Shown one piece after another: positions 1-28,498 of a stretch of DNA of 36,333 nucleotides. A program made the position numbers and the translations under genes. Within the stretch, counting starts at the first letter, position 1. Each line of letters starts with the position of its first letter. The notes under the pieces are model-generated. The model ran no database searches, was not told the DNA's origin, and was given only the letters and a program-made list of their open reading frames with translations. Source of the stretch: Macrostomum lignano (taxonomy: Eukaryota); the NCBI GenBank assembly GCA_002269645.1, contig NIVC01004745.1:1-36333 (forward strand), given 5' to 3'.

Positions 1-325
1 ACTGCAGATTGTCCACGTCGATTCCTGCAGAAATTCTTAACTCCTTTTTGCGTTGGTTACGAAATAGTTCATTGCTGATGATGAGAACGCGACCATCCAG
101 CTTGTTTTCATTGATCATTTGCCCATCTCTGAATAGGCTGGCGTCTTCGGTAGCCTGCACTAGCTGCCTTTGGCCTCGTGCATTAGCAGCGCGAATCCGG
201 TTAACGCGCCTCCTTCATTCCTGGAAAGATTCTAAGGTAGCACTTCGAAATAGGGTAACCTTCGATTCAAAGTGGCGTTTCAAGATTATCGATTATATTC
301 ATACTCGTATCCTCAATACTCGATG
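1..325 (-). pseudogene. Caspase-like gene A, distal part (second caspase-like domain begins here and runs off the window)
   Basis: Minus-strand translation near 140-1 reads EDASLFRDGQMINENKLDGRVLIISNELFRNQRKKELRISAGIDVDNLQ, resembling the caspase (peptidase C14) p20 N-terminal strand. It continues the ORF on the far side of the LTR element across the CTAC TSD (..TSIRDV|ASSIEDTSM..). There is a frameshift near 270-280 and an in-frame TGA at 217-215. Confidence 0.6.
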
Positions 326-329
326 CTAC
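326..329. repeat. Left target-site duplication CTAC of LTR element (right copy 10998-11001)
   Basis: CTAC lies immediately before TGTAGAG at 330 and immediately after ..CACATCA at 10997. Confidence 0.93.
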
Positions 330-1385
330 TGTAGAGTGTTCTACCTCCCGTAAGAAGACATGAAAGTGTTAACGTACTACTCACACATTTTATTCAGTAG
401 TAAGTTGAAGAGCATGAATAAAGGTATGCTTTGAATTATAAGTATATTCTGACTAACCAATAGAAGAGAGAGACCTTGAGCATGCTAATTTTAGAAATCA
501 CCCAATCACGTGCGACCAACAACTGTCAATTCAAACCCCACCTTCAAGTCATCATTTGGTTTGCACTCGGGTTGCACCCGGATGAACCAATCAAAGTCTA
601 CCAGCTACGGTAACCAATCATGCGCTTTTACAGTAGACTAGTTGCGCAACTTTCTACCCTGTCATGCTTGACAGCCACCGAATCGTGACCCTTTGACATT
701 TGCGAAGACAGTGATGTACGACCTCGAGAGAGGTCTGAACGCCTATAAATACAAGTGGTCCGGAACGGACCGCGGAGCACAGAATCTCCAAGAGAGAGAA
801 GCTCCGAAGAGGAAGCTCTAGTGAAGCCTTCCTGAAGAAACTCGCGTCGTGGACGAGTTCTTGCGGTAAGCCTTACTCATTTGCGCCGTTGGTTGAGACG
901 TCTCGCTCAAGTCTATTGAGACTTGAGTTTATTTGAGTCTGCTGAGACTCTTGAGTCTGTTTAGACTCCACTGGTTGCAGTCTCCAGAAGGACTGCCCCT
1001 GATAGGTCTTAGAAGACTATCAGTGGTTTCCGGAGCTATACCTAGAGTGCAAGAGGCACTGCTAGAAGGAGTAGGCTTATATTAAACCGCAGTTCGGCGC
1101 AGGGATCCCATTGTTGATTTGGAAGCTTCCCATTGGTCCGCACTACAGATACCGGCCGGAAACGACTTCAGTGGACAAAAGGAACGCGGACCTGGTTACG
1201 AACATAGACGTCTAAAGAAGTTCGAGGGACAAAGGAAGTCAGAGAACTACAGAACACGGAAGAGCTCTCCGAGACAGGACTCAAGGTAATACATACCTTC
1301 ATTTGATTACTGGGTTGCCTAGCTACAGAGCTAGAAGTGATTGTTCCTTGATTACAGTGGAGGACTGGTAATAAGGAACACATCA
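330..1385 (+). repeat. 5' LTR (1056 bp)
   Basis: Starts TGTAGAGTGTTC, ends AAGGAACACATCA; direct repeat of 9938-10997. Confidence 0.97.
744..749 (+). promoter_or_regulatory. TATA box of LTR promoter, downstream of several CCAAT boxes in U3; ATTAAA candidate polyA signal at 1081-1086
   Basis: GCCTATAAATAC at 741-752. CCAAT motifs near 457, 502, 587 and 614, and CACGTG near 507. Confidence 0.6.
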
Positions 1386-1387
1386 AT

Positions 1388-1405
1388 TGGTGATCTCGCC
1401 CTCTC
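1388..1405 (+). other. Putative primer binding site (TGGTGATCTCG...)
   Basis: TGG, complementary to the tRNA CCA end, starts 2 nt after the 5' LTR. The cognate tRNA was not identified. Confidence 0.65.
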
Positions 1406-2081
1406 GGCACTACTCAAACTTTTGAGCAATAGCCTGGCCAAGCTATTGTAAAGTGACGAAAGAGCGACTTCATTAATTTTGCGCGCACGTGTTAGAGGTA
1501 ACACTTTTCGACACTTTTCGATTTTTGTACGATTTGAAACTCGAGTAAAAGTTTAGGTATACAGGCTTGAGTACCTGTCAATTTTGAGTAACGTTTGAGC
1601 ACGCGTGTTAAATTTTTGTTTTTAACGAGCTCGAGCAAGAGTAAACCTTAAACAAAACCGAAAACAACGTCCGGTACACTGAAAACAAACCGAAAAATAA
1701 TCAATACACACTAAAACAAAACCGAAATTAAAAACACTTGACGAAAGCTAAAACAAACCGAAATTTGATAAAACGTGACAAGGCACGTCACGAAGACAAG
1801 AAAGGCCTTTGAAAAAAGCAAGAAGCAGCTGCACTTCAAGCACTTTAAAGATACACTTTGCGGGACGCCGCATAAGTGCGAAAATCAGCCAGCGAATAAG
1901 AGGTCAGACAAAAGCAGCCAAAAGCCGAATTCCGCTCAAGGTCAGACATAACAAATTGAGGTGTCAAAAGCCCGCAAGACAATCAGTTACAACCGAAGTT
2001 TATTTCGAAAGAAACACCACACTGGAAGATCCATTACAAATCGACCCAGACCTAGAGCTACCGTTCTATCCCATCAACAAC

Positions 2082-3741
2082 ATGGCGCGGCGCAATCAAC
2101 GGTGCACAGAGATATCAAAGAGACAGTTGGCACCTTTTCTATGGAAAAAGACTTTAACACCTTTGTTGATCATTTTGACCTGGTATGTAGGGAATACAAC
2201 CTACAAAATCCAGAAAAAGCGCAACTGTTGCCACCACTCCTCCAAGGCACTGCACGAGAGATTTATGGTAAACTAGACGCGGCAACACAGCAAAACTACC
2301 CAGCATTAATCATTCAACTGCGCGCACATTTCAACCGCTGTGGCACAAACAGATCAGTGCTACTGCACAAGTTGCATAACAGAAGGATGCAGCCAACCGA
2401 ATCCTTCCTGACCTTTGTGGACGACATCCGTCAGATAATTAAGGCACTGCATCAGCCAACACTGCCAGCTGCAGACCAACCACCTCTGGGTGCGGCAGAA
2501 TTAGCCGCTAGAGAGCGACAGCGATTGATGGATCGCGAACAAAATCTGATTCTGCACGTAATAAACAATGCACAGCCGTCACTCCGAGATAGACTTCTAC
2601 GCGAAAACATTGAAACCGAGGAAGACCTTTTACGGTGCGGAATGCAGTGGGAAGCAAGCGCTCCACTAATGACAACCGGCAACACAGAAGTGCAGAAACT
2701 GACACAGCAACTAAACAAATTGATGCAACATCAAACAGCCGTTATCGCCGAACAAAAAAGACGAAATGAACGAGCCCAAGCCAGATGCTATTACTGCGGA
2801 CGAGAAGGACACTACCAAATACATTGTCCTCATCGGTCAACAAGAAATGACATGCAGCGACAGCCATTCAACAGAAGGAAGCCGCAAAAACCATGGCAAC
2901 AACATCAAAATTGGCAGCAGCAAAACACGAAACGCTTCGGAAACAATGGCTACAGACCGCGAAACACCAGATACATGCCCAAGCAACCAACGCAAGCGAT
3001 GCAACGATATGCAAACGCCATCACGTACACACCGGAAAGCGAACAGCAAGAGCAGCAAGTCTTCACGATAGACGACTTAGAAATGGACTTCACTATCAAT
3101 GAAATCGACTGGCTCGATGCGGAGAGCAGCGAAAAGACAAAAAACATCAGCATGGTCGAAATGAAAGAAACTAACATTGACAGCGAAGAAGAAAAGTCAG
3201 AAGTGAGCACAGAAAAAACATTGCAAGCGACATCAGTGAAAGAAAAGAAGAAACAAACAAAGGCAACGACAAAGAACTGGCAACGAAGGATGACAACGAA
3301 AGAAGCAACGACGGAAATACAGAGATGGAAGAAGAACAGCAAGAAGAAAGCAGCGATCACGATTATGAGATGCAGAATGACGCTGATGACAACCGAGCCG
3401 CCGACAAAGAACATGAAGACGGAAGGCACAAAGGAATGGAAGAAAGAAATCTAAGCTCCGACAGCGATCAATGCTACGAGATCCGATATAAACGAAATGG
3501 TGAAGCCTACATTCAAACGGTCGACTACAAGGCCGAAGTGAGGTACCGCAGACAATGGAGTGACACAACTACAACATCGGAAGAAAGCAAGGAAGAAAAT
3601 GATGAAGACGACAAGCAGCGGAACGAATCGGATGCCTTGCGCTCGGAAACGCCAATGGAACAAGAGGAAGAATACGATGCGGACGTAGAAGATAACGAAT
3701 GGCAGCCGCAGCCAATGCCAGCAAAGACAACGGCAACGTTC
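2082..3741 (+). CDS. gag: Gag (capsid-like domain, CCHC zinc knuckle, long acidic C-terminal spacer); frameshifted near 2100 and near 3215
   Basis: Likely start MARRNQ at 2082 shifts into HRDIKETVGTFSMEKDFNTFVDHFDLVC, a retrotransposon gag-like helical region. It has a CYYCGREGHYQIHC knuckle (CX2CX4HX4C), then a D/E-rich segment running into the env signal peptide. Confidence 0.85.
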
Positions 3742-5616
3742 AGAAAATGGCGATTCTGGATATTCTGGATCATCATAATACTACTGACGGCAGTAGTCAC
3801 CAAAGCAACAGCAATGGAGAAACCAATGATATGTCCAACGGATGCGCATATCCAACCGATGATCTACAAGATACCAACCGACATCAAATGCAGCTACTTC
3901 AAGACAAACCAGGCGAAGCCAAAAAGATCACAATCGATCTCTACAAAGCCAACATCAAGAAGCATCGACAACTTGGAATCGTGTGCTTCAGAGACAAGCA
4001 CCTAGTCGAAAAAATATGGCGAGGACAATGGAACAGAATCCGATTCCGACAGCATGAGCTACATGTGTCGCACGCTGACTGCCTACGATGGAACCAGACA
4101 TTGTTCTCCAAAGATGGTGTACTAGAACCTGATGAAAAGGTCGGCAACGCACAACTCTTCCGAACAAAGAATGTGGCAAACGGTCGATATGTCCACTATA
4201 ATGAAAGATGGCCTGACTACACGGCACGCAACAGCTACCTAATCAGGAATGTTCCGTTCTACTACAATCCGTACGAGAAAATGGAATCACTGCAACTGCA
4301 ACTAAGTGAATGCCGATACAGCGAAGGATGGTGCCCAACGCCGATATTGCGAAATGCAGAACTCTACAGCCTACCGCTGAGTCCAACGTATCATCCAGAC
4401 TATCGATGGCAGATAGTGCACAGAGCCGATCCACACTACGAAGAGCCATCAAAGTCACGACAATATTTCTTCGCTTGGAAGGTTGAGACGGAAATCGACT
4501 GTCAACTACAAAAGTATCACACAGTGGAAGGAGGCCTACTGTCAAACACGTTTTTGGCAAAGTCAGGAGACTTGGCACTGACGTTTCAAAAGAAACCAGT
4601 CGAGCAAAAACTGAAATGCAAGGATACAGACAAGACACTATTATCTCGGAACAAGAGATACCAGTCTACGTAAAAGAAGACGACAAACAAACCTTTCTGG
4701 CGATCATCAACGGAACGTATCAACAGCAGGAACAACAGAACAGACGACGACGAGACATCGAACGTCCCAAACTGGTGTCAAACCGCTACTGTCAGCAAAG
4801 ATAACGGCTTTGGATCACAATCTACACAACCAGTTAAACCACTTGCATCGAACACTGGTTCAGCTAACTTGCAAAATGCACGCAATCAACTTAAATTATG
4901 CCAGACAAAACTACTATGTCAACCCTACGATGACTTTTCGTAAAATCACCGGAATGACAAACGTTTTGGCAGTTCCAATATACGAGCATCTGTTGATATA
5001 CAAGTGCACGCCGATACAGCACCTTAACATCTTGCCGTCGAACACGTCAACAACCTGCTACGACAAGCCAAGGATTGAAGCGTTCTACGAAGGAAAACGA
5101 ATTCAAGGATTCTTGGACACGGTACACAACATCATCGTCGGCACCGCAATACCGAGACCTTGCACCACGGCAGCAAACTACTATCAACTGGACAATGCAC
5201 TACACGTCATCAAAACAACTGGAACGACAGCAAACATCACAGAACCGGAAGTAATCGTCGACGAAAACTACGACATGGAGGATTTGAAAATCCGATTCAA
5301 CAGAACAAAGTATAGCCATTCGCCGATATCCAACTTGACGAGATAACACCAGGATGGACGATCAACGACTTCTTGCAAGCGTTCATCACCCAACGCAAGA
5401 TGATTCACCAGCTGTTCACAAGAAAGGACAAAGGAACCGGGACAGGAAGATTTCCCGTCCTTGTTTCAATGGACAGCGCCATCAAATCATTTTGGACAAA
5501 CAGCTTCTGAAAGCTGCTCAATGGAAGAGGAAGTCTCTATCAAGGATTCATCTTCTACGGTGCTTGCATTGTGTGGATTGTCACGGCAATCTTCATCATT
5601 TCGTCAATCGTACGGT
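3742..5616 (+). CDS. env: Envelope glycoprotein, class III (herpesvirus gB-like) fusogen; broken by several single-base frameshifts
   Basis: Signal peptide RKWRFWIFWIIIILLTAVVTKATA (3742-3813). Cys-rich ectodomain across ORFs 3325-4005, 3699-4673, 4616-4804 and 4810-5346, with sequons NQT, NGT, NTS, NIT, NRT. RRRR site at 4742-4753. gB-like VNPTMTFRKITG..LIYKCTPI and CYDKPRI..GFLDTVHNII..PRPC segments. TM GFIFYGACIVWIVTAIFIISSIV at 5544-5612. Confidence 0.8.
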
Positions 5617-7424
5617 GCTTCACTCAGACTTGTCCAAGAGCTAAGAAGACAGTGAATGCCATAATGCAAAGAACGACAACGGAAGGCGACAACAGTTTAG
5701 AACTAACAGAAACTGCACATCGTGAGGTTCAAGGGCAACCGACACTAGCAACGCGGCTATATCCATCGATTCCGACAACACCAACGGCACCAAGAATACA
5801 ACCACCCAATTATCAAGCAGAACAGCAAGACCCAAAATGGCCAGAGAACTACGTATGTACTCTACACGCCGAAATTGGCAAAGCAATGGCTCAAGTGGTA
5901 ATCAACAATCTACCATGTCGAGCGCTACTCGACTCCGGCAGCTCCATCACAGTTATATCAAAACAACTGTGCAACAAGCTACGACTTGCTCTACGGCCAG
6001 CAACAATCGCAGTTGCAGGAGCAGGAGGACATTCGCTAAACATTCTGGGAAAAGCCGACATTGATTTAAGAATCGCTAATAAACATTTGACAGTTCCAAC
6101 GTACGTCATCGACAGACTCCCAAACCAGGACGTTATTGTTGGCATCGACACGTTCAAGCAGCTTCGACTACCATTGACCTTCGACTTCAATAAGCAAACG
6201 TTCAAGATCGACTCGGTAGAACAACCATTGATCAACCAGATCCGAGTACTACCAAAAGTAACATTGCAACAAGATGTCATCATCCAACCGGAGAGCGCCT
6301 GCTGGATAAAGGCAAAGGCAACTAACGCAACGGAGGAAGCAATGATATTCGACCCAAACAGAAGAGTCACGGCTAAACACCAAATTATGATGCCTACGGC
6401 ACTAGTACTGGTTGCAAAAGATAAACAGCTGCCAGTACAAATATTCAACCCGAACACAGAAACGGTTCATCTACGACAAGGAATGTGCATCGGTCATCTC
6501 AACACCCAAGCATCGGTTATGCTGATTGAGCAAGCGACTCCACGACTAACAGAGGAAGAATTTCAAAAGAAGATCAATTTGGATGACAGCCCGATTACGG
6601 AACAGCAAAAGAGGAAAGTTCGACAGCTGTTGTGGAAGTACAACGACGCTTTCTGCCACCATGACTACGACATCGGACGAGCCAAGGACATCAAACAGGA
6701 AATCAAACTTCTGCCGCACACGGAACCAATTCAGTGCAAGCCGTACCCGATAGCCAAGCATCTGCAACAACACTTCGACGAAATTATCGACAAAATGCTA
6801 AAGCACGGCATCATCAGCAAAGCAATTTCAGCCTACTCCTCACCGTGCCTACTGGTACAAAAGAAGGAGACTAACGAAAGACGACTCGTATGTGACTTCA
6901 GACTACTGAACAAGTACATACCGACGGATCAGCAAAGCCTACCGAAGATCTCCGAACTACTAGCAAAGCTCAACACGGCAAAATTGTTCACAGTGTTCGA
7001 CCTACGTCATGGATTTTGGCAAATTGAAATCGAGAAAGAGTCACGACAGTACACGGCTTTCAAAACCTACAATGGACAAGTATACGAGTACAATCGATCG
7101 CCGATGGGACTCAGCAACAGCCCAGCAACGATGAGCCGACTAACAGCATACATGCTTGCAGGATGCACGAACCTGTTGCACTATGTTGACGACATCTTAG
7201 CCTACGGAGAAGACTTCGAACGACTCTATGAAGCGACGGAGAAGGCCCTCGCGCTTATCCAACGACAAGGACTTAAGCTACAACCGACGAAATGCAAATT
7301 CTTCCGAGACAACGTACGTTACCTAGGACACCAAGTGACAGCCAAAGGAATTTCACCGGACCCAGACAACGTGGAGAAAGTGAAAAAGTTTCCTACGCCA
7401 ACTAGCAAAACGAAGGTCCAATAA
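5571..7424 (+). CDS. pol: Env TM/cytoplasmic tail fused in frame to aspartic protease and reverse transcriptase
   Basis: ALLDSGS (DSG at 5931-5939), RRLVCDFRLLN, FDLRHGFWQI, PMGLSNSPATM, YVDD (7182-7193). The ORF ends at an in-frame TAA (7422-7424) inside the RT connection motif KVQ*FLGLAQYFRKF. Confidence 0.95.
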   Translation: MWIVTAIFIISSIVRCFTQTCPRAKKTVNAIMQRTTTEGDNSLELTETAHREVQGQPTLATRLYPSIPTTPTAPRIQPPNYQAEQQDPKWPENYVCTLHAEIGKAMAQVVINNLPCRALLDSGSSITVISKQLCNKLRLALRPATIAVAGAGGHSLNILGKADIDLRIANKHLTVPTYVIDRLPNQDVIVGIDTFKQLRLPLTFDFNKQTFKIDSVEQPLINQIRVLPKVTLQQDVIIQPESACWIKAKATNATEEAMIFDPNRRVTAKHQIMMPTALVLVAKDKQLPVQIFNPNTETVHLRQGMCIGHLNTQASVMLIEQATPRLTEEEFQKKINLDDSPITEQQKRKVRQLLWKYNDAFCHHDYDIGRAKDIKQEIKLLPHTEPIQCKPYPIAKHLQQHFDEIIDKMLKHGIISKAISAYSSPCLLVQKKETNERRLVCDFRLLNKYIPTDQQSLPKISELLAKLNTAKLFTVFDLRHGFWQIEIEKESRQYTAFKTYNGQVYEYNRSPMGLSNSPATMSRLTAYMLAGCTNLLHYVDDILAYGEDFERLYEATEKALALIQRQGLKLQPTKCKFFRDNVRYLGHQVTAKGISPDPDNVEKVKKFPTPTSKTKVQ

Positions 7425-9005
7425 TTTCTTGGACTTGCGCAATACTTCCGAAAGTTCTTACCCAACTTCGCGAAGACAGCAAAGCCACTGTACGACCTGC
7501 TCAAGTTCGACAAATGGAAGCAGGAGAATTGGACACAAAAGCAACAAGAAAGTTTTGACGAAATCAAACGACAGCTGACATCAGACGCACTGCTACAGCA
7601 TCCGGACTTCGACAAACCCTTCATCATCGAGACAGACGCCTCAGGAACGGGACTCGGAGCAGTCCTACTACAGGAAACTGAAGACAAAAAGGAACGACCT
7701 ATAGCATACGTCAGTCGAGCACTTAAACCGAATGAGACAAAATGGTCAGCTACGGAACGAGAACTACTAGGAGTTCTGTTCGCCCTACGACAGTTTCACT
7801 ACTACATCTATGGATCTCCATTACAGACGATAGTACGCACAGATCATGCACCGCTGACCTACGTCGTAACTACAAAAGGACAAACAAACAACCGACTCAT
7901 CAGGATGACACTCAAGATCCAGGACTACAACTACAAACTCGTCTACAAACCAGGAATTACTAACAAGGCCGCGGACGCCCTGTCAAGAGCCTACGAAGTC
8001 AACGCCATTCATCCAATCCCTAACATCAAGGAATTGGTGGATGAGACGGAACACGACAACTTCTACATAGCAGTTAAAAACAACGACAAGGACATCAAGC
8101 TCAGCCCCGTGGAACGAAAATTCCTACGCAAGCAACGACAACACCTAGCAATCAATAAGTCACGGCTCTACTGGATGAGCGACAATAAACCTAAGATCTA
8201 CGTACCATATTCGTTTCGGCAAGCAATTCTCAACGAGCTGCACGACAACCCACTCGCTGGACACCTGTCGGCCGCAAAGACCATCGCGAGAGTGGAACAA
8301 TACTACTTTTGGCCAACTATGTACGGCGACATCAAGCAGTATTGCAACAACTGCCATTCATGTGCTGCATCAAAGACAGGACGACGACAGAAACCGCAGC
8401 TACAGTCCATTCCGAAGTCGACTACAATGGACTGTCTAAGCATCGACATCACCGGACCGCTACCACCGAGCTGTCTCCAGGGCATAGCCTACACCTACAT
8501 CCTAACCGCCTTGGATATCTTCTCGAAGTTTGCTATCGCCATACCGATACCGGACATCACAGCTCAGACGGTGGCAATGAGCTTTTTCAACGACATCATC
8601 TGCAAGTACGGCACGCCGAAGAATCTTACGTCAGACAACGGATCGCAGTTTACGTCTCAACTGTTTCAGCAAGTTGTGAAGATTCTCAACATTACGCAGA
8701 TCTACACATCGACCTACAATCCGAAGGCGAACATGGTTGAACGGTTTCACCGCAACCTGCACGAGATGATTACACACTTCGCGCATCAACAGCCGGAAGA
8801 CTGGATCATCTACCTGCAATCAGTAACAATGGCCTACAACAGCGCTATTCATCGATCAACGGACAATACGCCATTCTTTCTAATGTTTGGGCGAGACTTC
8901 CAGCCGCCAAACCTATTGGCACAGCAACTACTACCATCGCAATATGTGGAAGTCCGACGTCCATTCAAAAGTTCGTCACGCAACTACACCTCGCATGGAA
9001 AGTAG
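7425..9005 (+). CDS. pol: RNase H and integrase (HHCC zinc finger + DDE core), same frame as RT
   Basis: FIIETDASGTGLGAVLLQ, WSATERELLGV and TDHAPL (RNase H). ELHDNPLAGH..CNNCHSC (HHCC), IDITGPLP, SDNGSQF, VERFHRNL (integrase core). Frameshift near 8955. Confidence 0.95.
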   Translation, partial: FLGLAQYFRKFLPNFAKTAKPLYDLLKFDKWKQENWTQKQQESFDEIKRQLTSDALLQHPDFDKPFIIETDASGTGLGAVLLQETEDKKERPIAYVSRALKPNETKWSATERELLGVLFALRQFHYYIYGSPLQTIVRTDHAPLTYVVTTKGQTNNRLIRMTLKIQDYNYKLVYKPGITNKAADALSRAYEVNAIHPIPNIKELVDETEHDNFYIAVKNNDKDIKLSPVERKFLRKQRQHLAINKSRLYWMSDNKPKIYVPYSFRQAILNELHDNPLAGHLSAAKTIARVEQYYFWPTMYGDIKQYCNNCHSCAASKTGRRQKPQLQSIPKSTTMDCLSIDITGPLPPSCLQGIAYTYILTALDIFSKFAIAIPIPDITAQTVAMSFFNDIICKYGTPKNLTSDNGSQFTSQLFQQVVKILNITQIYTSTYNPKANMVERFHRNLHEMITHFAHQQPEDWIIYLQSVTMAYNSAIHRSTDNTPFFLMFGRDFQPPNLLAQQLLPSQYVEVRRPFKSSSRNYTSHGK

Positions 9006-9028
9006 CCAAGCACAACATCGACAATCAG

Positions 9029-9394
9029 GTGGCTCTAACCACCGGCACCGACATGAGATCGACAACTCTGACAGCCGGCGACATCGTCTACCTGCACTAT
9101 CCGCCGCAACAGACGCACAAACACGCACAGAAGTACAAAGGACCATATCGAGTGGTCCAACTAACGTCACCGACAACGGCACGCCTGGCCAATGTGCAAG
9201 ATCCTCATCAGCACCAATTCTACGTGCACATTCATCGACTAAAGAAGATCAACACTGACACGACAGCGTTTTTACCGTCACTAGACAACGCTGATCGCAC
9301 GCGTTCGGCGAACCGCCACATCGCAACAAAACACGAGGAGACACAAACATCAACCGAGAACCAGCAACATGGCTACAATCTGCGACCTCGTTAA
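9029..9394 (+). CDS. pol: Integrase C-terminal GPY/F domain (frameshifted continuation of pol)
   Basis: AGDIVYL..KYKGPYRVVQ motif; ends HGYNLRPR*. Confidence 0.88.
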   Translation: MALTTGTDMRSTTLTAGDIVYLHYPPQQTHKHAQKYKGPYRVVQLTSPTTARLANVQDPHQHQFYVHIHRLKKINTDTTAFLPSLDNADRTRSANRHIATKHEETQTSTENQQHGYNLRPR

Positions 9395-9505
9395 GTTGCG
9401 AAAACAACCCGTGTAGAGACCGGGTCAGAATAGCTCTACAGCTTCGCAAGCTTGTCGTAAGAGGCGACTAATCTGAGCGACTTCAAACTTCAAGCGACAA
9501 CGACA

Positions 9506-9718
9506 ATGGGCAACGCACTGTCCAAACAGGCGCCCCAACTACAGCAACTCTACGAATGCCCAATATGTTTAACTGATGACTTGGCTGTCAAGCCACCAAT
9601 TATTTGTGAAAACAGACATCGCATATGCGGACAATGTTTAAGCGACTCACATTATATTCAGCTCTGGCAGAATTGCCCGATAGGTAGAAGTAGTTTGCGG
9701 CAGTGCGCCTATTGTTAG
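9506..9718 (+). CDS. Small RING-finger (C3HC4-like) protein with predicted N-myristoylation site, accessory ORF of the LTR element
   Basis: MGNALS fits M-G-x-x-x-S, with strong Kozak context ACAATGG. Cys/His pattern CPIC..CENRHRICGQC..CPIG; the last ligand is Gly rather than Cys. Confidence 0.75.
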   Translation: MGNALSKQAPQLQQLYECPICLTDDLAVKPPIICENRHRICGQCLSDSHYIQLWQNCPIGRSSLRQCAYC

Positions 9719-9927
9719 TCTTGGCGCACATGTCAATACTGTAACCAAAAACATTTTATTTGCATGCGTATACTTACCTTTAAATAACTTTTATAACCAA
9801 CGCTCTTAACTACCCATTACTAAATACCTGTAACACTTATGACAAATGATTATTATAAAGACATGCTTGAACTTTTTATGCGTTTCAATCCTCTCTTTAA
9901 AACTCGGGACGAGTTTTTTTGTAAACA

Positions 9928-9937
9928 TGGGAGATTT
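9928..9937 (+). other. Short putative polypurine tract
   Basis: TGGGAGATTT immediately 5' of the 3' LTR; short and weak. Confidence 0.4.
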
Positions 9938-10997
9938 TGTAGAGTGTTCTACCTCCCGTAAGAAGACATGAAAGTGTTAACGTACTACTCACACATTTTA
10001 TTCAGTAGTAAGTTGAAGAGCATGAATAAAGGTATGCTTTGAATTATAAGTATATTCTGACTAACCAATAGAAAGAGAGAGACCTTGAGCATGCTAATTT
10101 TAGAAATCACCCAATCACGTGCGACCAACAACTGTCAATTCAAACCCCACCTTCAAGTCATCATTTGGTTTGCACTCGGGTTGCACCCGGATGAACCAAT
10201 CAAAGTCTACCAGCTACGGTAACCAATCATGCGCTTTTACAGTAGACTAGTTGCGCAACTTTCTACCCTGTCATGCTTGACAGCCACCGAATCGTGACCC
10301 TTTGACATTTGCGAAGACAGTGATGTACGACCTCGAGAGAGGTCTGAACGCCTATAAATACAAGTGGTCCGGAACGGACCCGGAGCCACAGAATCTCCAA
10401 GAGAGAGAAGCTCCGAAGAGGAAGCTCTAGTGAAGCCTTCCTGAAGAAACTCGCGTCGTGGACGAGTTCTTGCGGTAAGCCTTACTCATTTGCGCCCGTT
10501 GGTTGAGACGTCTCGCTCAAGTCTATTGAGACTTGAGTTTATTTGAGTCTGCTGAGACTCTTGAGTCTGTTTAGACTCCACTGGTTGCAGTCTCCAGAAG
10601 GACTGCCCCTGATAGGTCTTAGAAGACTATCAGTGGTTTCCGGAGCTATACCTAGAGTGCAGAGAGGCACTGCTAGAAGGAGTAGGCTTATATTAAACCG
10701 CAGTTCGGCGCAGGGATCCCCATTGTTGATTTGGAAGCTTCCCATTGGTCCGCACTACAGATACCGGCCGGAAACGACTTCAGTGGACAAAAGGAACGCG
10801 GACCTGGTTACGAACATAGACGTCTAAAGAAGTTCGAGGGACAAAGGAAGTCAGAGAACTACAGAACACGGAAGAGCTCTCCGAGACAGGACTCAAGGTA
10901 ACACATACCTTCATTTGATTACTGGGTTGCCTAGCTACAGAGCTAGAAGTGATTGTTCCTTGATTACAGTGGAGGACTGGTAATAAGGAACACATCA
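9938..10997 (+). repeat. 3' LTR (1060 bp)
   Basis: Differs from the 5' LTR, by eye, in one substitution (GTAATACA vs GTAACACA) and about six 1-bp indels, mostly at short homopolymers. Confidence 0.97.
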
Positions 10998-11001
10998 CTA
11001 C

Positions 11002-11517
11002 ATCCCTGATGCTAGTGTACTTATCAGGGTACTCGTAATTCTTCAACTCGGCGTCTTGCACTAACTTCATGAATTCCTTGATGAAATCTGTTATCTTTAC
11101 ATGGGTGTCAATCTTCTTTATTATAAAAGCGTTTTTGCACCCAGACTGACCACTCGTATAATTCCCATCTTCGCTTGGATCGCTTGAGTTATTACTTGGC
11201 TCTGACTTGACTTCGCAGTATATGATCAGCTTTGGTGTTTCTTTGGGTATTTTCTCTCCCAACTTCGTCAGGCACTCGCGCAACAAAGGCTTATCGGTCC
11301 AGACTAGCAGAACAACAACGGACGGCGTTGCGAACTTGTAGTCGGTTTGATCATCATTTTTGAATTTAACTGGTTTTAGGCCTCGATCAGTGCAGAATTC
11401 AATAAAATTGTTCGGGACCGGATGACTTTCTTCTTTATCTTCAGCGATCATCTTCAATAACGTCTCTCCATCGACAATGAGAACACCGCAGTCCCCTGGT
11501 GATCCTGAAGTCCATTT
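11002..11517 (-). pseudogene. Caspase-like gene A, proximal part (degenerate caspase-like domain), interrupted by the LTR element
   Basis: Open frame KWTSGSPGDCGVLIVDGE..FIEFCTDRGLKPV..SVVVLLVW..ETPKLIIYCEV..NAFII..ITDFIKEFMKLV echoes the caspase strand/helix order, but the HG and QACRG motifs are absent. It runs into the LTR at the TSD. Confidence 0.5.
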
Positions 11518-12592
11518 TTATTATGGAACCTATACAGTGAATCTATCAATTACCGCACTGCAAGAATAATTACAAATTCAAATAAATAGCGTTGCACTTA
11601 CTAATTGGTGGCACATTCTGAGACACATTTCCTGCAGGCCTGTCTGAAATGTAAATTGTGAATTTTTTTTGTTTCCGGTTCAATTATGTTTCTCATGGTG
11701 CGATAATCTTTCGAAAACTATTCCTTATACAATTAAAATCATTTTAAAGTGTTCTTCTGTTCAATGCCCTTTTCGATATTTTCTATCTTCGAAATGTCGT
11801 TATCCAGTCCTTTTGAGTTGCCCGAATCTGGAGTTCAGAAGTCTTTTTTTACTTCGATAAAGTACATTAATATAATAGTAATGTTGTTACTCTTGCCGTT
11901 GTCAGTATATTCAGAGTTTGTGCTTACTGTTCTGGTTGACGAGTTCTGGTTCGCTGTCAGGGCTAGGCTGCTTGCTTTCAGTTGGGTTCTGGCTACTACC
12001 GCTGCCTGGCTGATTTAATAAAAACTAAATTGCTATTGAAAACTAGCGATAGTTGAAGTTTGACAACTTACCAGCAGACTTAGTGACTGCACCATTGTCG
12101 AGGACTTGTTCCACTGCAGAGCAAATTGGCGGGTGGAAATTTTCTGCTTATCTGCATCAGAAAGCTACGATTACTCGTAGGCGCAAAACTTTTAGATTGA
12201 AATAAAAAATCTGCAGCATACCAACTTCATTCGACATGACTGCGGCTCAAATCTAACAATCTAAAATGTGGTTTTTGTTTAAATACATTTGAAATGAGAT
12301 GATGTACTCGTCATTGAAAAAAGTTATATCAAGTTACTAGAACCAAAAGCTGTGAAATCCGTCAACCGTAGGTGTGGAAATTTTCTTTCTGCCGCAGTCA
12401 TGACGAGGCGCTTCCAAGGCTGTGTACAGCTGTTCAGTCCGCGGGCACCGGGGCTGCCACACCCAAAAATTTTCTCCCCCAGACCGGGATAATACGAAAA
12501 ATACTGTTATATCCAATGGCAAGTGCCAGGTATTATGATGTGCGTCGAAAATCAGTCGGTAATAAAAATAACTCTCCGGGCAGTATATATGA

Positions 12593-14143
12593 AAAACCTC
12601 ACTGTCTATGGCAGAAACATCGCCTTCAAGAAGGAGGTCAAATACCTCGGTGTGACGCTAACACATGACCTGCGCTGGATGAAACACCTTGAGAACGTCA
12701 TCGGTCGGGCAAAACGCTGCTTTGCCCAGCTGCGCAGAGCCATCGGGCCGACTTGGGGCCTCTCGCCTAGAACGGTCCGTTGGATTTATACCGGCATCAT
12801 CCGGCCCAGTATCACATATGCGAGTCTCATCTGGACTAGCGTGCTGGAGCAGAAAACCGCCCGTCAGCGCCTGCACCAGCTGCAGGGCAGCATTTGTCGC
12901 GCCATCACAGGTGCGTACCCGTCTACCCTCTACGAGGGGCTGAACACTATTCTTAATCTTCCTCCGCTTCACCTATTTATTAGGGTGGAGGCTATGAAGT
13001 CCTCCTCCCGACTTTATCAGAGATAAAACGTTAAATAACGTACCCTCTGGCTTTATGCCAATGAAAACATTAATCCCGCATATGGACTTTGTTCGCCACG
13101 ACCTCAACAACATCCACATGGACCTGGGCAATGTGGATAGTCGACTCCCCGCTCTCAACATCAGGAGGGGCTTCCAGACCGCCATCCCTGGCCGAGACAA
13201 CATTCCGCTGGATGTCGGCGTGAACCGGCGCAGCCAGGGCATTCACTGCTTCACTGACGGCTCGCTGTTCAACGGCCGCGCTGGAGCGGGTATTGCCATT
13301 TTCCACGAGGGTAAGATGCTTTTCCAGGAAAGCCTGCACCTCGGTGAGAACACCTCAGTTTTCCAAGCTGAAATTTGCGCCATTGAGCAGTGTGCCCAGC
13401 AACTGCTTCAGGCGAACATTAATAATTTTGACATTAATTTCTACACTGATAGCCAAGCTGCTATTAAGGCCTTGACCACTGTGAATATCTCCGCTGCTAC
13501 AGTATCTCAATGCCACCGCAGTGTGCAATCTCTCTCAGTCCTTAACAGGATTAGAATTATCTGGACACCCGGTCACAGCAAAATCCTGGGCAACGAGCTC
13601 GCGGACTCTCTCGCCAAGGAGGGCAGCAACCCAGACGGCAACCACCGTCTGATGAGGCTACCCACTCCCAGGTCGCAAGTCACCCGCCATATTAACAGGT
13701 GGCTCCATCAGCAGCACCAGCTTCACTGGAACAGCTGCACCGAGTACAGGCAGAGCCGCTCTGCCATGCCTAACCTGAACAGGAAAGTCTCTGATTATCT
13801 GATTTCGCTTAACAGAACCGACCTCAGGGAGATGTGCATGGTCCTAACCGGCCATGGATTCTTCCAGAGACATATATCGTTGCAAACCGGTTGCCCTCCC
13901 ACCTGTCCTTTCTGTGGCATAGGAGAGGAGACCGCAGAGCATCACGTCACCTTCTGCCCTTACTTCAACAAGGCGCGGCACAAATACCTCGGCCACCCCC
14001 AGCGGATGGACGAGCTGACCACCCCGGACAATATCCGAGACCTTCGCGCCTTCGTCCGGGACTCTGGCCGGATGAGGGTCGCCGATGCCTCCACTGCGAA
14101 CCTGCCGACTACTGGCGGGGACTGGGCGCACCCCCAGGGTTAA
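12593..14143 (+). CDS. LINE ORF2 C-terminal part: RT thumb, RNase H, Cys/His domain (1-nt frameshift near 13022)
   Basis: [26 protein letters not shown]; [39 protein letters not shown] (RNase H); [24 protein letters not shown]. Confidence 0.9.
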
Positions 14144-14238: not shown

Positions 14239-15010
14239 AGTATATATGATTGCTAAACAACTTCAGCTTGTCAAAAGGCTTTTAATGACGACTTACGAAA
14301 TTGACAAGTTGTGGAAGCGATACTCCTCAGAGAAGATGTAGCGGTCTTCGGACTGCGATGTGCAGCTGCTCAATTAAAGTTCAATAATTAGATACCTGCA
14401 GCAACTCTTAAGCTTTGTGCGACCGTAAGCCCAATTAGAATTATAAGTTGCTTGGCTTGGGGCTTTACTAATATTTCACAAGGTTAGCATTGTAGTGTTT
14501 GGATTAACAATGTCAGAGCTACTTGTAGGCAACTATAGTGGCTGGGGTAGGAGTGTGCTGACGCACAGAAGTACTGGAGCTGGCAGAAATGGCCAAAGTA
14601 CTTGCGCATTGCTGGATCGGGGTGGCTGTATGGCAGCAATGTCCTGCGCACTAGACAGGCTCTTGCGTATGACTCAGAGCTATGGTAGAGAAAGACTGCA
14701 AAAGCACAGTAGCAATCTCACTGCGCACCTCAATGCGCAATGTACTCAGAATTATCAGCATTTATTATAAAAATCTGAGTCCTGCAGTACACCGATGCAG
14801 CTTTTTCACATGCACGTACAAAACGAAGTTCCGTTTTACATTGATTTGCAGTCGTTCTCTTTGAGTTCGGGACTGGAAAACGGGGTGAAAAAAAACTGCA
14901 GCACCCTGAAACACAGCTGTCGCTTGCAAGCAACATTTCACTTCTCTTCGTCATCCACAATATGAAGTGAATGGGTATAATGACTGGTATATAGAGACGG
15001 GTGTGGTAAA

Positions 15011-17457
15011 ATGAGGAAAGTGTCAGGTAGATGGAGGAAGGTGTCAGGTAAATGGAGGAATGTGTCAGGTAAATGGAGGAATGTGTCAGGTAGATGTAGG
15101 AATGCGTCAGGTAGATGGAGGAAGGTGTCAGGTAGATGGAGGAATGTGTCAGGTAGATGGAGGAATGTGTCAGGTAGATGGAGGAAGGTGTCAGGTAGAT
15201 GGAGGAAAGTGTCAGGTAGATGGAGGAAGGTGTCAGGTAAATGGAGGAATGTGTCAGGTAAATGGAGGAATGTGTCAGGTAGATGTAGGAATGCGTCAGG
15301 TAGATGGAGGAAAGTGTCAGGTAGATGGAGGAAGGTGTCAGGTAAATGGAGGAATGTGTCAGGTAGATGTAGGAAGGTGTCAGGTAGATGTAGGAATGTG
15401 TCAGGTAGATGTAGGAATGTGTCAGGTAGATGGAGGAAAGTGTCAGGTAGATGGAGGAATGTGTCAGGTAGATGGAGGAATGTGTCAGGTAGATGTAGGA
15501 ATGCGTCAGGTAGATGGAGGAAGGTGTCAGGTAGATGGAGGAATGTGTCAGGTAGAAGGAGGAATGTGTCAGGTAGATGGAGGAATGTGTCAGGTAGATG
15601 GAGGAATGTGTCAGGTAGATGTAGGAATGTGTCAGTTAGATGTAGGAATGTGTCAGGTAGATGTAGGAATGTGTCAGGTAGATGGAGGAATGTGTCAGGT
15701 AGATGGAGGAATGTGTCAGGTAGATGGAAGGTGTCAGGTAGATGGAAGGTGTCAGGTAGATGTAGGAATGTGTCAGGTAAATGGAGGAATGTGTCAGGTA
15801 GATGTAGGAATGCGTCAGGTAGATGGAGGAAGGTGTCAGGTAGATGGAGGAATGTGTCAGGTAGAAGGAGGAATGTGTCAGGTAGATGGAGGAATGTGTC
15901 AGGTAGATGGAGGAATGTGTCAGGTAGATGTAGGAATGTGTCAGTTAGATGTAGGAATGTGTCAGGTAGATGTAGGAATGTGTCAGGTAGATGGAGGAAT
16001 GTGTCAGGTAGATGGAGGAATGTGTCAGGTAGATGGAAGGTGTCAGGTAGATGGAAGGTGTCAGGTAGATGTAGGAAGGTGTCAGGTAGATGGAGGAAAG
16101 TGTCAGGTAGATGGAGGAATGTGTCAGGTAGATGGAGGAATGTGTCAGGTAGATGGAGGAATGTGTCAGGTAGATGGAGGAATGTGTCAGGTAGATGGAG
16201 GAAGGTGTCAGGTAGATGGAGGAATGTGTCAGTTAGATGGAGGAATGTGTCAGGTAGATGGAGGAATGTGTCAGGTAGATGGAGGAATGTGTCAGGTAGA
16301 TGGAGGAATGTGTCAGGTAGATGGAGGAATGTGTCAGTTAGATGGAGGAATGTGTCAGGTAGATGTAGGAATGTGTCAGTTAGATGGAGTAATGTGTCAG
16401 GTAGATGGAGGAAGGTGTCAGGTAGATGGAGGAATGTGTCAGGTAGATGTAGGAATGTGTCAGTTAGATGGAGTAATGTGTCAGGTAGATGGAGGAATGT
16501 GTCAGGTAGATGGAGGAATGTGTCAGGTAGATGGAGGAATGTGTCAGGTAGATGGAGGAAGGTGTCAGGTAGATGGAGGAATGTGTCAGTTAGATGGAGG
16601 AATGTGTCAGGTAGATGGAGGAAAGTGTCAGGTAGATGGAGGAATGTGTCAGGTAGATGGAGGAATGTGTCAGGTAGATGGAGGAATGTGTCAGGTAGAT
16701 GGAGGAATGTGTCAGGTAGATGGAGGAAGGTGTCAGGTAGATGGAGGAATGTGTCAGTTAGATGGAGGAATGTGTCAGGTAGATGGAGGAATGTGTCAGG
16801 TAGATGGAGGAATGTGTCAGGTAGATGGAGGAATGTGTCAGGTAGATGGAGGAATGTGTCAGTTAGATGGAGGAATGTGTCAGGTAGATGTAGGAATGTG
16901 TCAGTTAGATGGAGTAATGTGTCAGGTAGATGGAGGAAGGTGTCAGGTAGATGGAGGAATGTGTCAGTTAGATGGAGTAATGTGTCAGGTAGATGGAGGA
17001 ATGTGTCAGGTAGATGGAGTAATGTGTCAGGTAGATGGAGGAAGGTGTCAGGTAGATGGAGGAATGTGTCAGTTAGATGGAGGAATGTGTCAGGTAGATG
17101 TAGGAATGTGTCAGTTAGATGGAGTAATGTGTCAGGTAGATGGAGGAATGTGTCAGGTAGATGGAGGAATGTGTCAGGTAGATGGAGGAATGTGTCAGGT
17201 AGATGGAGGAAGGTGTCAGGTAGATGGAGGAATGTGTCAGTTAGATGGAGGAATGTGTCAGGTAGATGGAGGAATGTGTCAGGTAGATGGAGGAATGTGT
17301 CAGGTAGATGGAGGAATGTGTCAGGTAGATGGAGTAATGTGTCAGGTAGATGGAGGAATGTGTCAAGTAGATGGAGGAATGTGTCAGGTAGATGTAGGAA
17401 TGTGTCAGGTAGATGTAGGAATGTGTCAGTTAGATGGAGGAATGTGTCAGGTAGATG
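15011..17457. repeat. 21-bp minisatellite/satellite (GTCAGGTAGATGGAGGAATGT), about 117 monomers with variant units
   Basis: Direct reading. Variants include 18-bp units, GTAAATGG, ATGCGTC, GTTAGATGG and GGAGTAAT. Confidence 0.98.
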
Positions 17458-17731
17458 AGGTTTCCAGTGAGGTTTCCAAGAATTTTATATGTTAAACAAT
17501 AGAGTATAGCTTTATGAATAAAACGACACATTTAGAAGACTTGAAAATGAAAAATTCAGTTTTCAGTTTCTCTCAGTTTTTATTATTGCTTTTCTTTTCT
17601 CCGCATGTTGTTTTCGTAGATTTTACAGTTGACGCACAGTTTTTGTGGTCACGTGACCTGGCGGGAATCGCTAAACGCATAAACTGAAATTTGATTGCAA
17701 GTCACAATGTTTGTTCTCACTCAGCATAGAA

Positions 17732-18894: not shown

Positions 18895-19424
18895 GAGCAG
18901 TCTTGGTAAAGTAATTGATTGATGAAGAAGCCAGTGAAGTATGAGACAGACTAGGCCCATGGGCTAAGGTCTGCGATGCTTCACGCCTGCCCCTATCTTC
19001 AGCAGGTCAAGGCTAGTGGGAGGTCTGCACCCTCTATTTGCCTCTGGAAGCCGCAGACCCCCCCCCCACGCTGTCTCGCAAGTCGACCCAGGGTACTCGT
19101 CCCCGCGTGTGTTCAAGGCAGTCCCTAGGGCTGCTGGACAGACTGGGCTCCGGCGCTGGCGACCCTATCCAGTGGCTTCGGCCGAATTTGGGTATGCGGG
19201 TCTGGCTCGCCAACCTGCAGGCCGTGATACTGCTCAACGTACTCTCTAATGCCTAAGGTGTTGACCGTGCCGATGGGCTGGAAGGCCGGGGAGTAGTCCG
19301 GTCGCAAGCGGTCCCCCTCCTGGTGTCGGGCCAGCCTTGAGGGTTCTATTGGCCTACTGCCCGGTCAGGTGGAGCGGCCGGGTGGGTACCGCGCCCCTTT
19401 GAGGGTAGCCCACCAACCTTTATC

Positions 19425-20926
19425 ATGGCCTTCGAGCCGACTATGGAAAAAAACCCTAGTTCTAGGGACGGGGACCCTTCTAAACCCCAACCTCAGTCCG
19501 AAGGACCGGCCGGCCCTGCTGGCAGATCCCAACCGACTGATTCAACTGTGGCAAAGGAAGGACCGGCTGGCTCTGCTGGCAGATCCGACCAGAGCTACCA
19601 AACTCAAAATACCCAAAGACCTGCCAGCTCCGCTGGTGGATCTAAGGGAACCGCGAGCTCTGAGCCTAAAGGACCGGCCAAATCTGGCAGATCCGATGAA
19701 GCTCAGCGGGCTCAGCTTGAGCGCAAACGCGCTAAACAACGCGCCAAAAGGCAGGCCAAGAAGGGAGCTGCGGGGGCCAAAGCGGCGGCGTCCACCATGG
19801 ATGCTGAAGCGACTGGAGTCCCAAGGCAACCAGGCGGGCCGGCCGGTGGAAGCTCCAGTAGTTCAGCGGCGGCGCTCCCTGGAGATGCTGCCGCGGCTGC
19901 TGAGGCCGAAACCACGGCGCAACAAATGGCCACTGCCAACAAGGAGGTTCCTTCGGGAGCTACCTTTGCGGCAAAGGCCAAGGCCAAAATCCCGGGAGTG
20001 ATCATCCAAGGTCGCGACCAGGACTGGACCACTGATCAGCTTCAAAAAGTGTGGAGTGCTGTTGACTCCTATCTGATTGGCTGACTGTCGAGGAGGGAAT
20101 CTCCATCGGCATTGAGCGGATGGTGCTGCGAAGCACATTCGTTCTTATTGCTCCTAGCAGCGAGGAGGACGCTCGGCAGCTGCTCCAGCGGCTACCGACG
20201 GTCTCCTTGGATGCTGACCTTGGCGGAGCTCTTTTTCTTCGCGAGGGCCAGCGTCCAAAGACGATACCCTATGTGGTTTTCGTCCCTGCTAAGAGCACCG
20301 CAGCTGGACCAGACGTTATCGCCGGGTCCTACTGCGTCTGAACCCGACCTCCCTGCTAGTGGACTGGTGTATCACCGCAAAGTCCGCAGGGGGGAGACGG
20401 GCAACTCAATTGTCCTCGGCCTTTCCAGCACTTGGGCGAGTCGGTACCCTAATGGATCCTCTTTCAGCTGGGTGCCCTCAAGCTCAAGATGCGCCGAGGA
20501 AAGTCTGCCAAAGGGAAGGCTACTGCCAACCCCGGCATCTCCGGCAAGAGCGAGGCGCAGTCTAAGGCCCAAGGAAAGGCGCAAGCCGATCCCAAAGCCA
20601 AAGCTGCGTCTCGCCCTCTGCTAGCAGCAGTTCGGCGACCGCGGTAACGGCTCCGGCCAAGCCCCGGGAACCAAACCTGCCAGTCGGAGAAGGAGTTGAG
20701 GACGAGGCCGGGTCTTCGGAATCCGAGCTCTCCTCGGCCACCCTGGTGGGGTCTGAAGGTAAAGATGCAGATGAGGAAGCTTCCTCCATCCTGTCATCGG
20801 AGCCTGAGGACTCTGCTGGGGGGGGCCGGTGGGGGTGAGGAGGCCATGGACGTCGACCAACTCCCATCTCCCAGTCAAGCCCCAGCGGCCTGGGACGAGG
20901 ACGATCTGTTGTCCAAGTCTCCTTGA
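19425..20926 (+). CDS. LINE ORF1 (low-complexity N-terminus, DUF4780-like domain), frameshifted
   Basis: Pro/Ala/Gly-rich region, basic ERKRAKQRAKRQAKK, then TFAAKAK..WTTDQLQKVWSAVDSYL..FVLIAPSSEEDARQLL..YVVFVP. This pattern resembles DUF4780 of LOA-type ORF1s (recognised by eye). Confidence 0.6.
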
Positions 20927-20965
20927 TGGCCCTGGGCTCTAGCCAGACATTGCATTTAATACAGT

Positions 20966-23900: not shown

Positions 23901-24703
23901 GTGTTTTCCAAAATGAAGTTCTGGCCATCAGCTCCTGCACTGCAGAGCTTCTCGCCACTGGCGTTATTGGCAAGAACATCATTTTCCATTCGGACAGCCA
24001 AGCTGCCTTGCACGCCATCAGTGGCTGCAGCACCAACTCTGCTACAGTCCTCGACTGTATCAAACTCCTCAACGTGTTGGGTTCCGCCAACAAAATTACC
24101 CTTAAGTGGGTTCCGGGGCATGTGGGGATCCGAGGAAATGAGTTGGCTGACACCCTTGCAAAAGTCGGTGCCTCCGGCTCCTCTCTCGGCCCCGAACCTC
24201 TTGTCCCGATTCCTGGCTGTGTCATCAACTCGCGCATCAAAGCGTGGATCAGGACTCAGCACCGCTCGACTTGGGCGAACCGCACGAACTGCAGGCAATC
24301 CAGAGGCGCTGTCCCTCAGCCCTCTCACCAGCTCCGGAAGCTCCTCTTGCGCCTCTCGCGCAGAGACATCCGGGCTGCCACCATGACCCTCTCTGGTCAC
24401 GGCTGCTTCTCCAGGCACCAGTACCTGCAGGGCAACGCCACCAACGCCACCTGTAGTTTCTGTAACTCAGGTGACGAAACCGCTGAGCATTTCGTCAGCA
24501 TCTGTCCCGACTTTACGCGAGCCAGACTCACTTACCTCGGGCCACACACATCTATTACTGAAGCGTGCAAACCCGAAAACTTTATTCAGCTCATGCGCTA
24601 CCTTCGGGCCACCCGGAGGGCTGAACTCTCCTTTCCAGAGAGCACCATAGCTGCTGGCGACACTGGGGGACCTCCCTGGGCGGCGCCAACCCTCCGTCCA
24701 TAG
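20966..24703 (+). CDS. LINE ORF2: AP endonuclease, reverse transcriptase, RNase H, C-terminal Cys/His; several frameshifts
   Basis: LQINLQH, LIQEPW, GGDLNAHH, TPTF, SDH (APE); KSPGPDGI, FIPKPGK, RPISLTS, LDIVGAFD, GPQGGVLTP, YADD (RT); YTDGSK..VFQNEV..SDSQAA..WVPGHVGIRGNELAD (RH); CSFC..ETAEHFVSICP. Confidence 0.93.
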
Positions 24704-24801
24704 CGACGCGTCGGCCGTTCAGGGATTAGCGGAATGGGCGCCCGCGCCTTTCCGCTGTGTCCCCTCCGGGACAGCCCTGCAGCTAAGTCTAAGTAAGTCA
24801 A

Positions 24802-25101
24802 GAGCAGTCTTGGTTTATTAGCCAACTGATTGGCAGAGAGTTTGTCCATCACAGAAGAGACTGTGATACAATTCGGTAAATCCCTAATCGCTCGCTCCAC
24901 TACGTAAAGCCGACCCTCGCATCCGTATTCTATTTCAATGTTCTGCTCCAGAAAGCCGAGCCTGAGAAATAGGTGCTTCAGATTGGCGCAGTCCATTCTA
25001 GTGCCTCTTCTGCGATTGAGTTCCTTAAAGTTTTCGTTTGCTATTATGAGAACTCTTCCATCTCCCTTGTTCTCATAGAAGCTACCGGCTTCATCGGTCA
25101 A
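24802..25101 (-). pseudogene. Caspase-like gene B, p20 N-terminal part
   Basis: ENKGDGRVLIIANENF..RRGTRMDCANLKHLFLRLGF..GCEGRLY..LANKPRLL, a classic caspase p20 layout cut at the LINE TSD. Confidence 0.85.
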
Positions 25102-25453
25102 TTGTAGTATTTTCTGTTGTTCTATTTTTTAGGTTGTTCTCCAATAACCTATCCTTAAGGTTGAAGGCTCCGATTTGTAGGTTCGGGTTTTTCCCAGTCC
25201 TAAAATGCGTGTAAATGACTTCGCAAGAACCAAGATTGTCTGTATCATTTGAGTGCTCGATTTTTGCTTTTAGGTCATCTAGAAAGCACAATAGATTGTT
25301 CGTATCTCCGCGTTTGTAGATCAAAGAAATGTTCGGATATTCTGTTTTCCAATTCTCATCGGTCAGAGTTACAACATCATTATCCTCCTTGATGTCTGGA
25401 GCTGATTTGTCCTCAGGATCTCTTAGCCTGCAGAATATCAACAGCCTTTGCAA
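25091..25453 (-). CDS. Probable upstream (prodomain-like) segment of caspase-like gene B, one frameshift from the p20 frame
   Basis: 120-aa open frame overlapping the p20 start by 11 nt, with an A-run at the junction. No recognisable family. Confidence 0.4.
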   Translation of the reverse strand: MQRLLIFCRLRDPEDKSAPDIKEDNDVVTLTDENWKTEYPNISLIYKRGDTNNLLCFLDDLKAKIEHSNDTDNLGSCEVIYTHFRTGKNPNLQIGAFNLKDRLLENNLKNRTTENTTIDR

Positions 25454-28066: not shown

Positions 28067-28498
28067 GGCGGTCTCCGCTGTCGGTCTCCCGCGGCCGCGC
28101 CCCCCCCCTTGGATAGTGGCGTAAATAAATACTCATTTCAAAGTTTTACATGTAAGTAGGCGGCATACCCTTGCACAAGGTTGCATAATTATTTGAAAGC
28201 CGTATGCTTGTATGGGGTGGACAGTTGACAGTCAAAATGCCTATATCTACATGTACCTCCATACAGTAATAATTTACCTATTAAACAACAGGTAAGGTCA
28301 AAGATAACATATGCGTATGCCAGCAAAGGTTTAAAATTTTCAATAATTAATTGTACGGTACAATGCGATAGCAAAACAAACTAATCTTAGATGCAGCTAT
28401 TATCTAGAATCTCGATTTATCTTCCAGAATTTTAGAGAAATACAACTAGGACAGGGGAAATCCCGGAAAATCAATCAGGTTTGCCAAGCTGTATTAAA

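Follow-up and report, generated by a model that had tools for sequence, protein, structure and literature searches.

The cytosolic tail of the envelope protein (Env) in a family of Macrostomum lignano errantiviruses carries short motifs of the late-domain type, and their recurrence in copies, families and distant relatives suggests that they are very probably selected ligands of the ESCRT machinery. With less assurance, we lean towards the view that they are late domains that would recruit ESCRT to the errantivirus Env tail and serve particle budding and scission. The copy from which this analysis starts lies in a stretch of 36,333 nucleotides, called here the window.

The translation of window positions 5757-5813 on the forward strand, LYPSIPTTPTAPRIQPPNY, holds three motif classes. 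These are LYPSI, a YPx[L/I] motif of ALIX type (5757-5771); PTAP, of TSG101 type (5781-5792); and PPNY, a PPxY motif of NEDD4/WW type (5802-5813) in which x is N, I, G or T in close copies. Sequence read-out, family counts and close-copy comparison were the basis for the first two. The initial annotation had placed the three motifs at these same positions, which translation confirms; its description of LYPSI as an imperfect ALIX match, with Ile in place of Leu, was wrong, since YPXL/I is the published PalA/ALIX consensus (PMC10532540). All three match the consensus of their late-domain class (P[TS]AP, YPx(n)L/I and PPxY). The ligands of these classes are ESCRT-I for PTAP, ALIX for YPDL-like motifs and NEDD4-type ligases for PPxY (PMC2958808). 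A single open frame (5511-7424) unites the Env helix, the motif stretch, the protease DSG and the reverse transcriptase YVDD, and apart from this PTAP and this PPNY none of the six frames of window 1-11100 contains a P[TS]AP or a PPxY. When the 83-residue tail was shuffled 300,000 times at constant composition, all three motifs appeared jointly once; this figure is post hoc, and it is therefore the cross-family tests described below that carry weight.

The element itself spans 330-10997 and is a Ty3/gypsy LTR element with GAG-ENV-POL order and a herpesvirus gB-like Env, all features lying on the forward strand. Its 5' LTR (330-1385, TG...CA) and 3' LTR (9938-10997) differ at seven of 1061 columns (six one-base indels and one substitution) and are bordered by target-site copies CTAC at 326-329 and 10998-11001; the primer-binding site is at 1388-1399. 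Paired TG...CA LTRs, target-site duplication, primer-binding site and the Pol order protease, reverse transcriptase, RNase H, integrase are those of Ty3/gypsy, and Env placed between Gag and Pol is the mark of the HSV/gB-type errantiviruses. The gag region (2082-3200, with a frame break near its start) comprises a capsid region and one CCHC knuckle (2786-2827; weak zf-CCHC profile match, E 0.056) and is followed by an acidic spacer. A hydrophobic stretch resembling an internal signal peptide (3742-3813) stands at the junction of the Gag-side spacer and Env; hydropathy and position point to it, and its cleavage is presumed. Next come the Env ectodomain, of gB/chuvirus-like class III type (3814-5543; PF24664, E 1.4e-6, at its cut-off), with a furin site at 4742-4753, the transmembrane helix predicted by hydropathy (5544-5600), and the cytoplasmic tail or protease linker, about 84 Pro/Thr-rich residues (5601-5852). 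Soon after the helix, VNAI (5652-5663) is a candidate site for the element protease, and it recurs between RNase H and integrase. Pol consists of the aspartic protease (5853-6161, DSG at 5931-5939), the reverse transcriptase core (6858-7337, YVDD at 7182-7193, with a stop downstream at 7422-7424), RNase H (7605-7928, by profile match) and an integrase with zinc finger, core and C-terminal part (8202-9394, with a frame break near 8950-9000).

Several sister copies consist of one uninterrupted frame of 2,480-2,538 residues. The window copy is interrupted: its ectodomain frame is broken near 3900-3930, 4640, 4790 and 5320 and, immediately ahead of the helix, meets a stop at 5508-5510. Because of this stop, that at 7422-7424 and the several frame breaks, the window copy cannot make the Env-tail protein as sequenced. 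The family of HSV/gB-type GAG-ENV-POL errantiviruses to which it belongs is intact, and the window copy is a broken representative. The earlier placement of the motifs on the Env tail, between the transmembrane helix and the protease, thus stands as to layout; continuity of the protein comes from the sister copies and not from the window copy. The ectodomain of sister copy L061 was modelled with pLDDT 65 and pTM 0.42 and gave TM-scores to gB of about 0.25; every match listed by Foldseek for this model was a herpesvirus gB, the best at E 8e-20. The acidic spacer, seen at window 3181-3740 and in L061 and L062, is long (370 residues in L061), extends from nucleocapsid to Env signal, and varies strongly between families. 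Ectodomains of three other families (C, D and E; copies L067, L070 and L074) contain mucin-like Thr/Pro-rich inserts of 204-266 residues directly before the furin site, which recall the mucin-like domains of filoviruses.

Open frames flank the LTR element at 10780-11517 (reverse strand) and at 3-353; a 245-residue frame reaches the 3' LTR and has no Pfam match, and the site of insertion may have been a gene or a further repeat. A pair of broken non-LTR retrotransposons, whose endonuclease, reverse transcriptase and RNase H-like frames were recognized by eye, lies at 12493-14143 and 19297-24703 (forward strand), and tandem arrays occupy 14870-17500 (about 118 copies of a 21-base unit) and 27220-28150 (a 24-base unit). 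On the reverse strand, a 700-residue frame without a Pfam match (31045-33150) appears transposase-like by eye, and the frame at 24598-25128 has, also by eye, a caspase-like N-terminal stretch.

The order of features supports a tail exposed on the cytosolic side. The signal-like stretch is followed by a Cys-rich ectodomain with six sequons and the furin site, then by one helix, and the tail behind it has no sequon. Since the tail continues into protease and reverse transcriptase, which are necessarily cytosolic, the tail would be cytosolic as well. Hydropathy, sequon distribution and continuity with protease and reverse transcriptase therefore agree with the cytosolic topology proposed in the initial annotation, and the check for a lumenal tail was passed. 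In the seven families checked, the first Met of the long frame never precedes Gly.

Copies of the window element at 92-100% identity number at least 40 in the genome, and more distant local families have Env identities of about 67%, 32%, 29% and 21%. A UniRef protein named Macrostomum lignano is 98% identical over the matched part. Among 30 copies, the motif stretch is identical in 27; in two, the codons for PPNY contain a gap of one base, and one reads LYPLI-PTAP-PPNY. Comparison of 27 close-copy haplotypes, drawn from the 64 of 100 loci that lay above the score threshold (many of the loci represent one place twice, and gapped codons were skipped), revealed amino-acid change at none of the 10 key motif positions versus 26 of the 45 positions that flank them (Fisher p 8.7e-4), while silent changes are present at five of the 10 key positions. 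The predicted protein P0001 lacks the motif block. A splice excising this block was considered and rejected, as no such joint was found in the contigs of four runs; contigs cannot prove absence, and P0001 is likely a gene-model artefact.

At greater distance, 10 Env-bearing families of the Macrostomum genome were compared, one copy each, with expectations from composition shuffles. P[TS]AP occurs in eight of the 10 tails (0.27 expected) and YPx[LI] in seven (0.44 expected), the two together in six families. PPxY occurs in only one (0.53 expected) and is not enriched, so that by these tail sequences the three-motif cluster is specific to the family of the window element. P[ST]AP ranked first of all 4-mers in the local tails with no motif assumed, each of 11 permutations of its letters occurred in three families at most, and it was found eight times in 885 tail residues as against once in 15,687 residues elsewhere. 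Exceptions are family G, without any motif, and family I, with PPAP in five of five copies; L063, a long-frame copy of family B, has PNAP, and tails were unreadable at L080, L093, L094 and L099. In a reverse transcriptase tree of elements of the Macrostomum genome, which is without families G and J and whose long-branch joins call for caution, the Env-bearing elements fall on one side of a branch (98/96) and form three deep sub-branches, each with P[TS]AP. The families share ancestry, and the shuffle P-values therefore overstate the evidence. A better argument is the low identity of the tails between deep branches (19-33%) together with a changing motif order: YP stands ahead of PTAP in family A and behind it in B, B2, D, H and J, a variability that short linear motifs would be expected to show. 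The P[TS]AP and YPx[LI] motifs of the tail thus look to be under selection.

Distant relatives give a similar picture. Querying a word index with the Env of the window family gave two proteins only; a profile of the ectodomain alone matched 496 proteins, and the best 150 of these were taken. From 151 proteins, 65 without a helix after the Env match, three with a short or mis-called tail and three from local families were set aside, which left 80 tails, some perhaps with mis-set boundaries. In these 80 tails, from the best 150 of 496 relatives, P[TS]AP was found in 10 (0.70 expected), PPxY in 11 (1.56 expected) and YPx[LI] in nine (2.40 expected), and six decoy patterns stood at chance. Any motif was present in 24 tails (4.5 expected) and none in 56. 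In the ectodomain, each motif-bearing relative among the 80 shares 26-60% identity with the closest other protein that has a motif. The four relatives that bear an organism name are nematodes, and a Caenorhabditis clade has a motif in only two of 11 proteins, both near-identical, as PPAY at the protease boundary. The motifs are thus conserved above their flanks and flexible in position, as late domains are, PPxY being so only within the family and in the distant tails. The suggestion of the initial annotation that these are ESCRT-binding motifs withstands comparison both with the surrounding linker and with related elements.

Several distant relatives are unusual in structure. In P0025, P0156 and P0033, the Gag-Env frame stops a short way beyond a tail with P[TS]AP; the stop falls at the same residue in P0025 and P0156, which suggests that Pol lies in another frame. 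P0167 (Caenorhabditis briggsae, annotated CBR-DCT-10) and P0166 (C. japonica) have Env and, replacing the reverse transcriptase, helicase-type Pfam domains, and possibly represent a captured or domesticated element. P0016, a relative of 2,741 residues, appears with two protease-like domains.

The host encodes candidate receptors for P[TS]AP and YPx[LI]. Family matches to the TSG101 UEV domain occur at three loci (E 6.7e-39), and matches to the ALIX V-domain and Hrs families were also found. In alignment with human TSG101 (E 9.7e-45), the host UEV has His and Val at two pocket positions that are Tyr and Phe in the human protein, which we take to be pocket residues Tyr63 and Phe142; Thr58, Tyr68, Asn69 and Met95 (human numbering) are, by our assignment, kept. 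Complex prediction for the host TSG101 UEV (L142) with the window tail scored 0.27, the mark being 0.34, and is weighed neither for nor against binding. A PSAP of the host Hrs was sought over the 10 kb ahead of its helical exon and was not found.

The sequence shows one polyprotein that runs from Gag through signal, Env ectodomain, helix and tail to protease, reverse transcriptase, RNase H and integrase, and a budding route may be proposed for it. The signal would be cut in the endoplasmic reticulum, which would leave Gag and Env-Pol as two membrane-tethered chains. Gag would assemble under the membrane that holds Env-Pol; the tails would recruit TSG101 (ESCRT-I) and ALIX and, in the family of the window element, also a NEDD4-type ligase; and ESCRT-III would cut the bud neck. 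More speculatively, the element protease might then trim the tail and free Pol. VNAI-like sequences, presumably protease cleavage sites, occur 18-21 residues after the helix in four of 10 local families and in seven of 80 distant tails (2.3 expected, for a pattern picked post hoc), all seven among the 24 motif-bearing ones. It is possible, and we put it forward only tentatively, that budding here is unlike that known from any retrovirus in having one polyprotein threaded through the endoplasmic reticulum, Gag held by its C-terminal signal peptide, Pol held by the Env helix and ESCRT recruitment shifted from Gag to the Env tail, and that after release the protease excises the late-domain peptide between two sites, freeing Pol and trimming Env in one step. 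Such a peptide would resemble p6 and the R-peptide combined. If ESCRT recruitment has indeed shifted to the Env tail, only membrane that contains Env and Pol could be cut.

The main rival to scission, which sequence cannot separate from it, is sorting of Env into vesicles. The motifs would then be real ESCRT or NEDD4 ligands that steer the traffic of Env or Env-Pol to multivesicular bodies, exosomes or lysosomes, or that limit the fusogen at the surface, and they would not cut a budding virion; we assign this a modest probability. Motifs of this kind are able to direct a membrane protein into vesicles with no virion budding involved, as for E-cadherin (PMC9511404), and when the Env leader of foamy virus is ubiquitinated, surface Env falls and subviral release is suppressed (PMC7828637). 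All conservation results fit this explanation equally well. However, viral late-domain cassettes cluster several motif classes, and two to three classes gathered in one short tail, as in the local families that combine P[TS]AP with YPx[LI], are close to such cassettes. Moreover, the Gag-side spacers of 39 distant proteins contain motifs at chance, so that in distant relatives Gag shows no apparent late domain besides. One could also regard the linker as an ordinary p6-like spacer between Gag and Pol, with late domains, that was displaced behind Env when env inserted upstream; it would act as a freed or Pol-attached peptide, and its position on the Env tail would be incidental. Retroviral p6 sits directly before the protease, as this linker does, candidate protease sites flank it in some families, and three of six local Gag-side spacers do have a motif. 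Furthermore, in one gypsy family without Env (L114:788-1753, L118:576-1814) a separate Gag frame ends with PTAP plus two residues. An env located after Pol was sought in this family and rejected, the Env profile finding no match between Pol and the 3' LTR, and the family therefore remains a counter-example. We nevertheless judge such displacement improbable. In 13 Env-less gypsy families, the 130 residues that precede the protease are free of motifs throughout; these families came from 40 control loci after removal of two without protease and of L130, which we take to resemble a host DDI1-type gene, the loci reaching about 1.8 kb past the protease and the search for env after Pol covering the one family. 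In addition, among 36 distant tails behind which no protease was seen, nine nevertheless bear motifs (2.18 expected), and once the signal is cleaved the linker would be joined to Env and not to Gag.

Chance matches in a proline-rich linker, or a constraint of another kind, for example from protease recognition, from RNA structure or from a partner outside ESCRT, would make the motifs irrelevant to ESCRT altogether. The tails are indeed rich in Pro and Thr, the majority of distant tails are motif-free, and the PPAY of P0083 aligns with protease-boundary sequence. P[TS]AP is also present in five of the 80 distant ectodomains (0.77 expected), at two homologous positions, so that its conservation for structural reasons is possible. 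Against this, composition shuffles, permutation decoys and the unbiased 4-mer ranking all single out the motifs in the tail, key codons change silently and never in amino acid, and motif order and spacing shift. Lumenal Thr/Pro-rich inserts contained a motif in none of three cases (0.3 expected, a weak control). We give this explanation very little probability, and retain selected ESCRT ligands on the Env tail, with particle budding as their presumed role, as the preferred reading.

HSV/gB-type GAG-ENV-POL errantiviruses were reportedly described by Sacco et al. in 2022, and Anakin elements are said to be retroelements that carry a chuvirus-type (Monjiviricetes/gB-like) glycoprotein. The layout is known from Nematoda, Bryozoa and Platyhelminthes (Chary and Hayashi, eLife 2026, PMC13524379), and the window element shares with these errantiviruses the Ty3/gypsy Pol, the LTRs, a gB-like Env between Gag and Pol and many near-identical copies; a supplementary row for a Macrostomum HSV/gB-type element has the same 12-base primer-binding site, and Anakin is placed in BEL/Pao, not Ty3/gypsy (PMC13524379). 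The accessible main text of that article has no mention of late domain, ESCRT, budding, cytoplasmic or PTAP and states that the transmission mechanism outside Drosophila is unknown; by term search, seven of its supplementary files contain no PTAP and three PSAP, two of these in ectodomain rows (PMC13524379). The accessible part of a paper on Cer1 likewise has nothing on budding or late domains (PMC3315495). Among titles and abstract openings, mostly of papers outside subscription, we found no report of late domains in the Env tail of a retroelement. The element type and its layout are therefore already described, and the tail motifs are the new addition.

Retroviral Gag and matrix proteins (PTAP and LYPxnL of HIV-1 p6, PPxY of other Gags) offer the same three classes in a short proline-rich cluster upstream of the protease. 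Unlike theirs, the window motifs come after the Env helix and stand apart from Gag, with a signal peptide and a lumenal ectodomain (about 575 residues) in between. Foamy viruses have their PSAP late domain in Gag, and their Env is encoded by a separate gene and has a different fold. In bluetongue virus NS3 a late-domain motif is found on the cytosolic side of a membrane glycoprotein. E-cadherin has P(S/T)AP on that same side (PMC9511404); both it and NS3 differ from the Env discussed here in that they are not fusion proteins and are not fused to a Pol polyprotein. The cytosolic part of foamy virus Env governs particle release (PMC7828637), as we propose for this tail.

An intact fusogen informs about entry only, and selected ESCRT motifs in the Env tail would provide evidence, at the level of sequence, on the exit step. 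In this element they sit on a fusion glycoprotein, whereas the textbook location of late domains is Gag or matrix. The family has many young copies and Macrostomum lignano is a laboratory flatworm, which brings host-side tests within reach, and the motifs name the host proteins that may be involved in a possible exit of Env-carrying retrotransposons.
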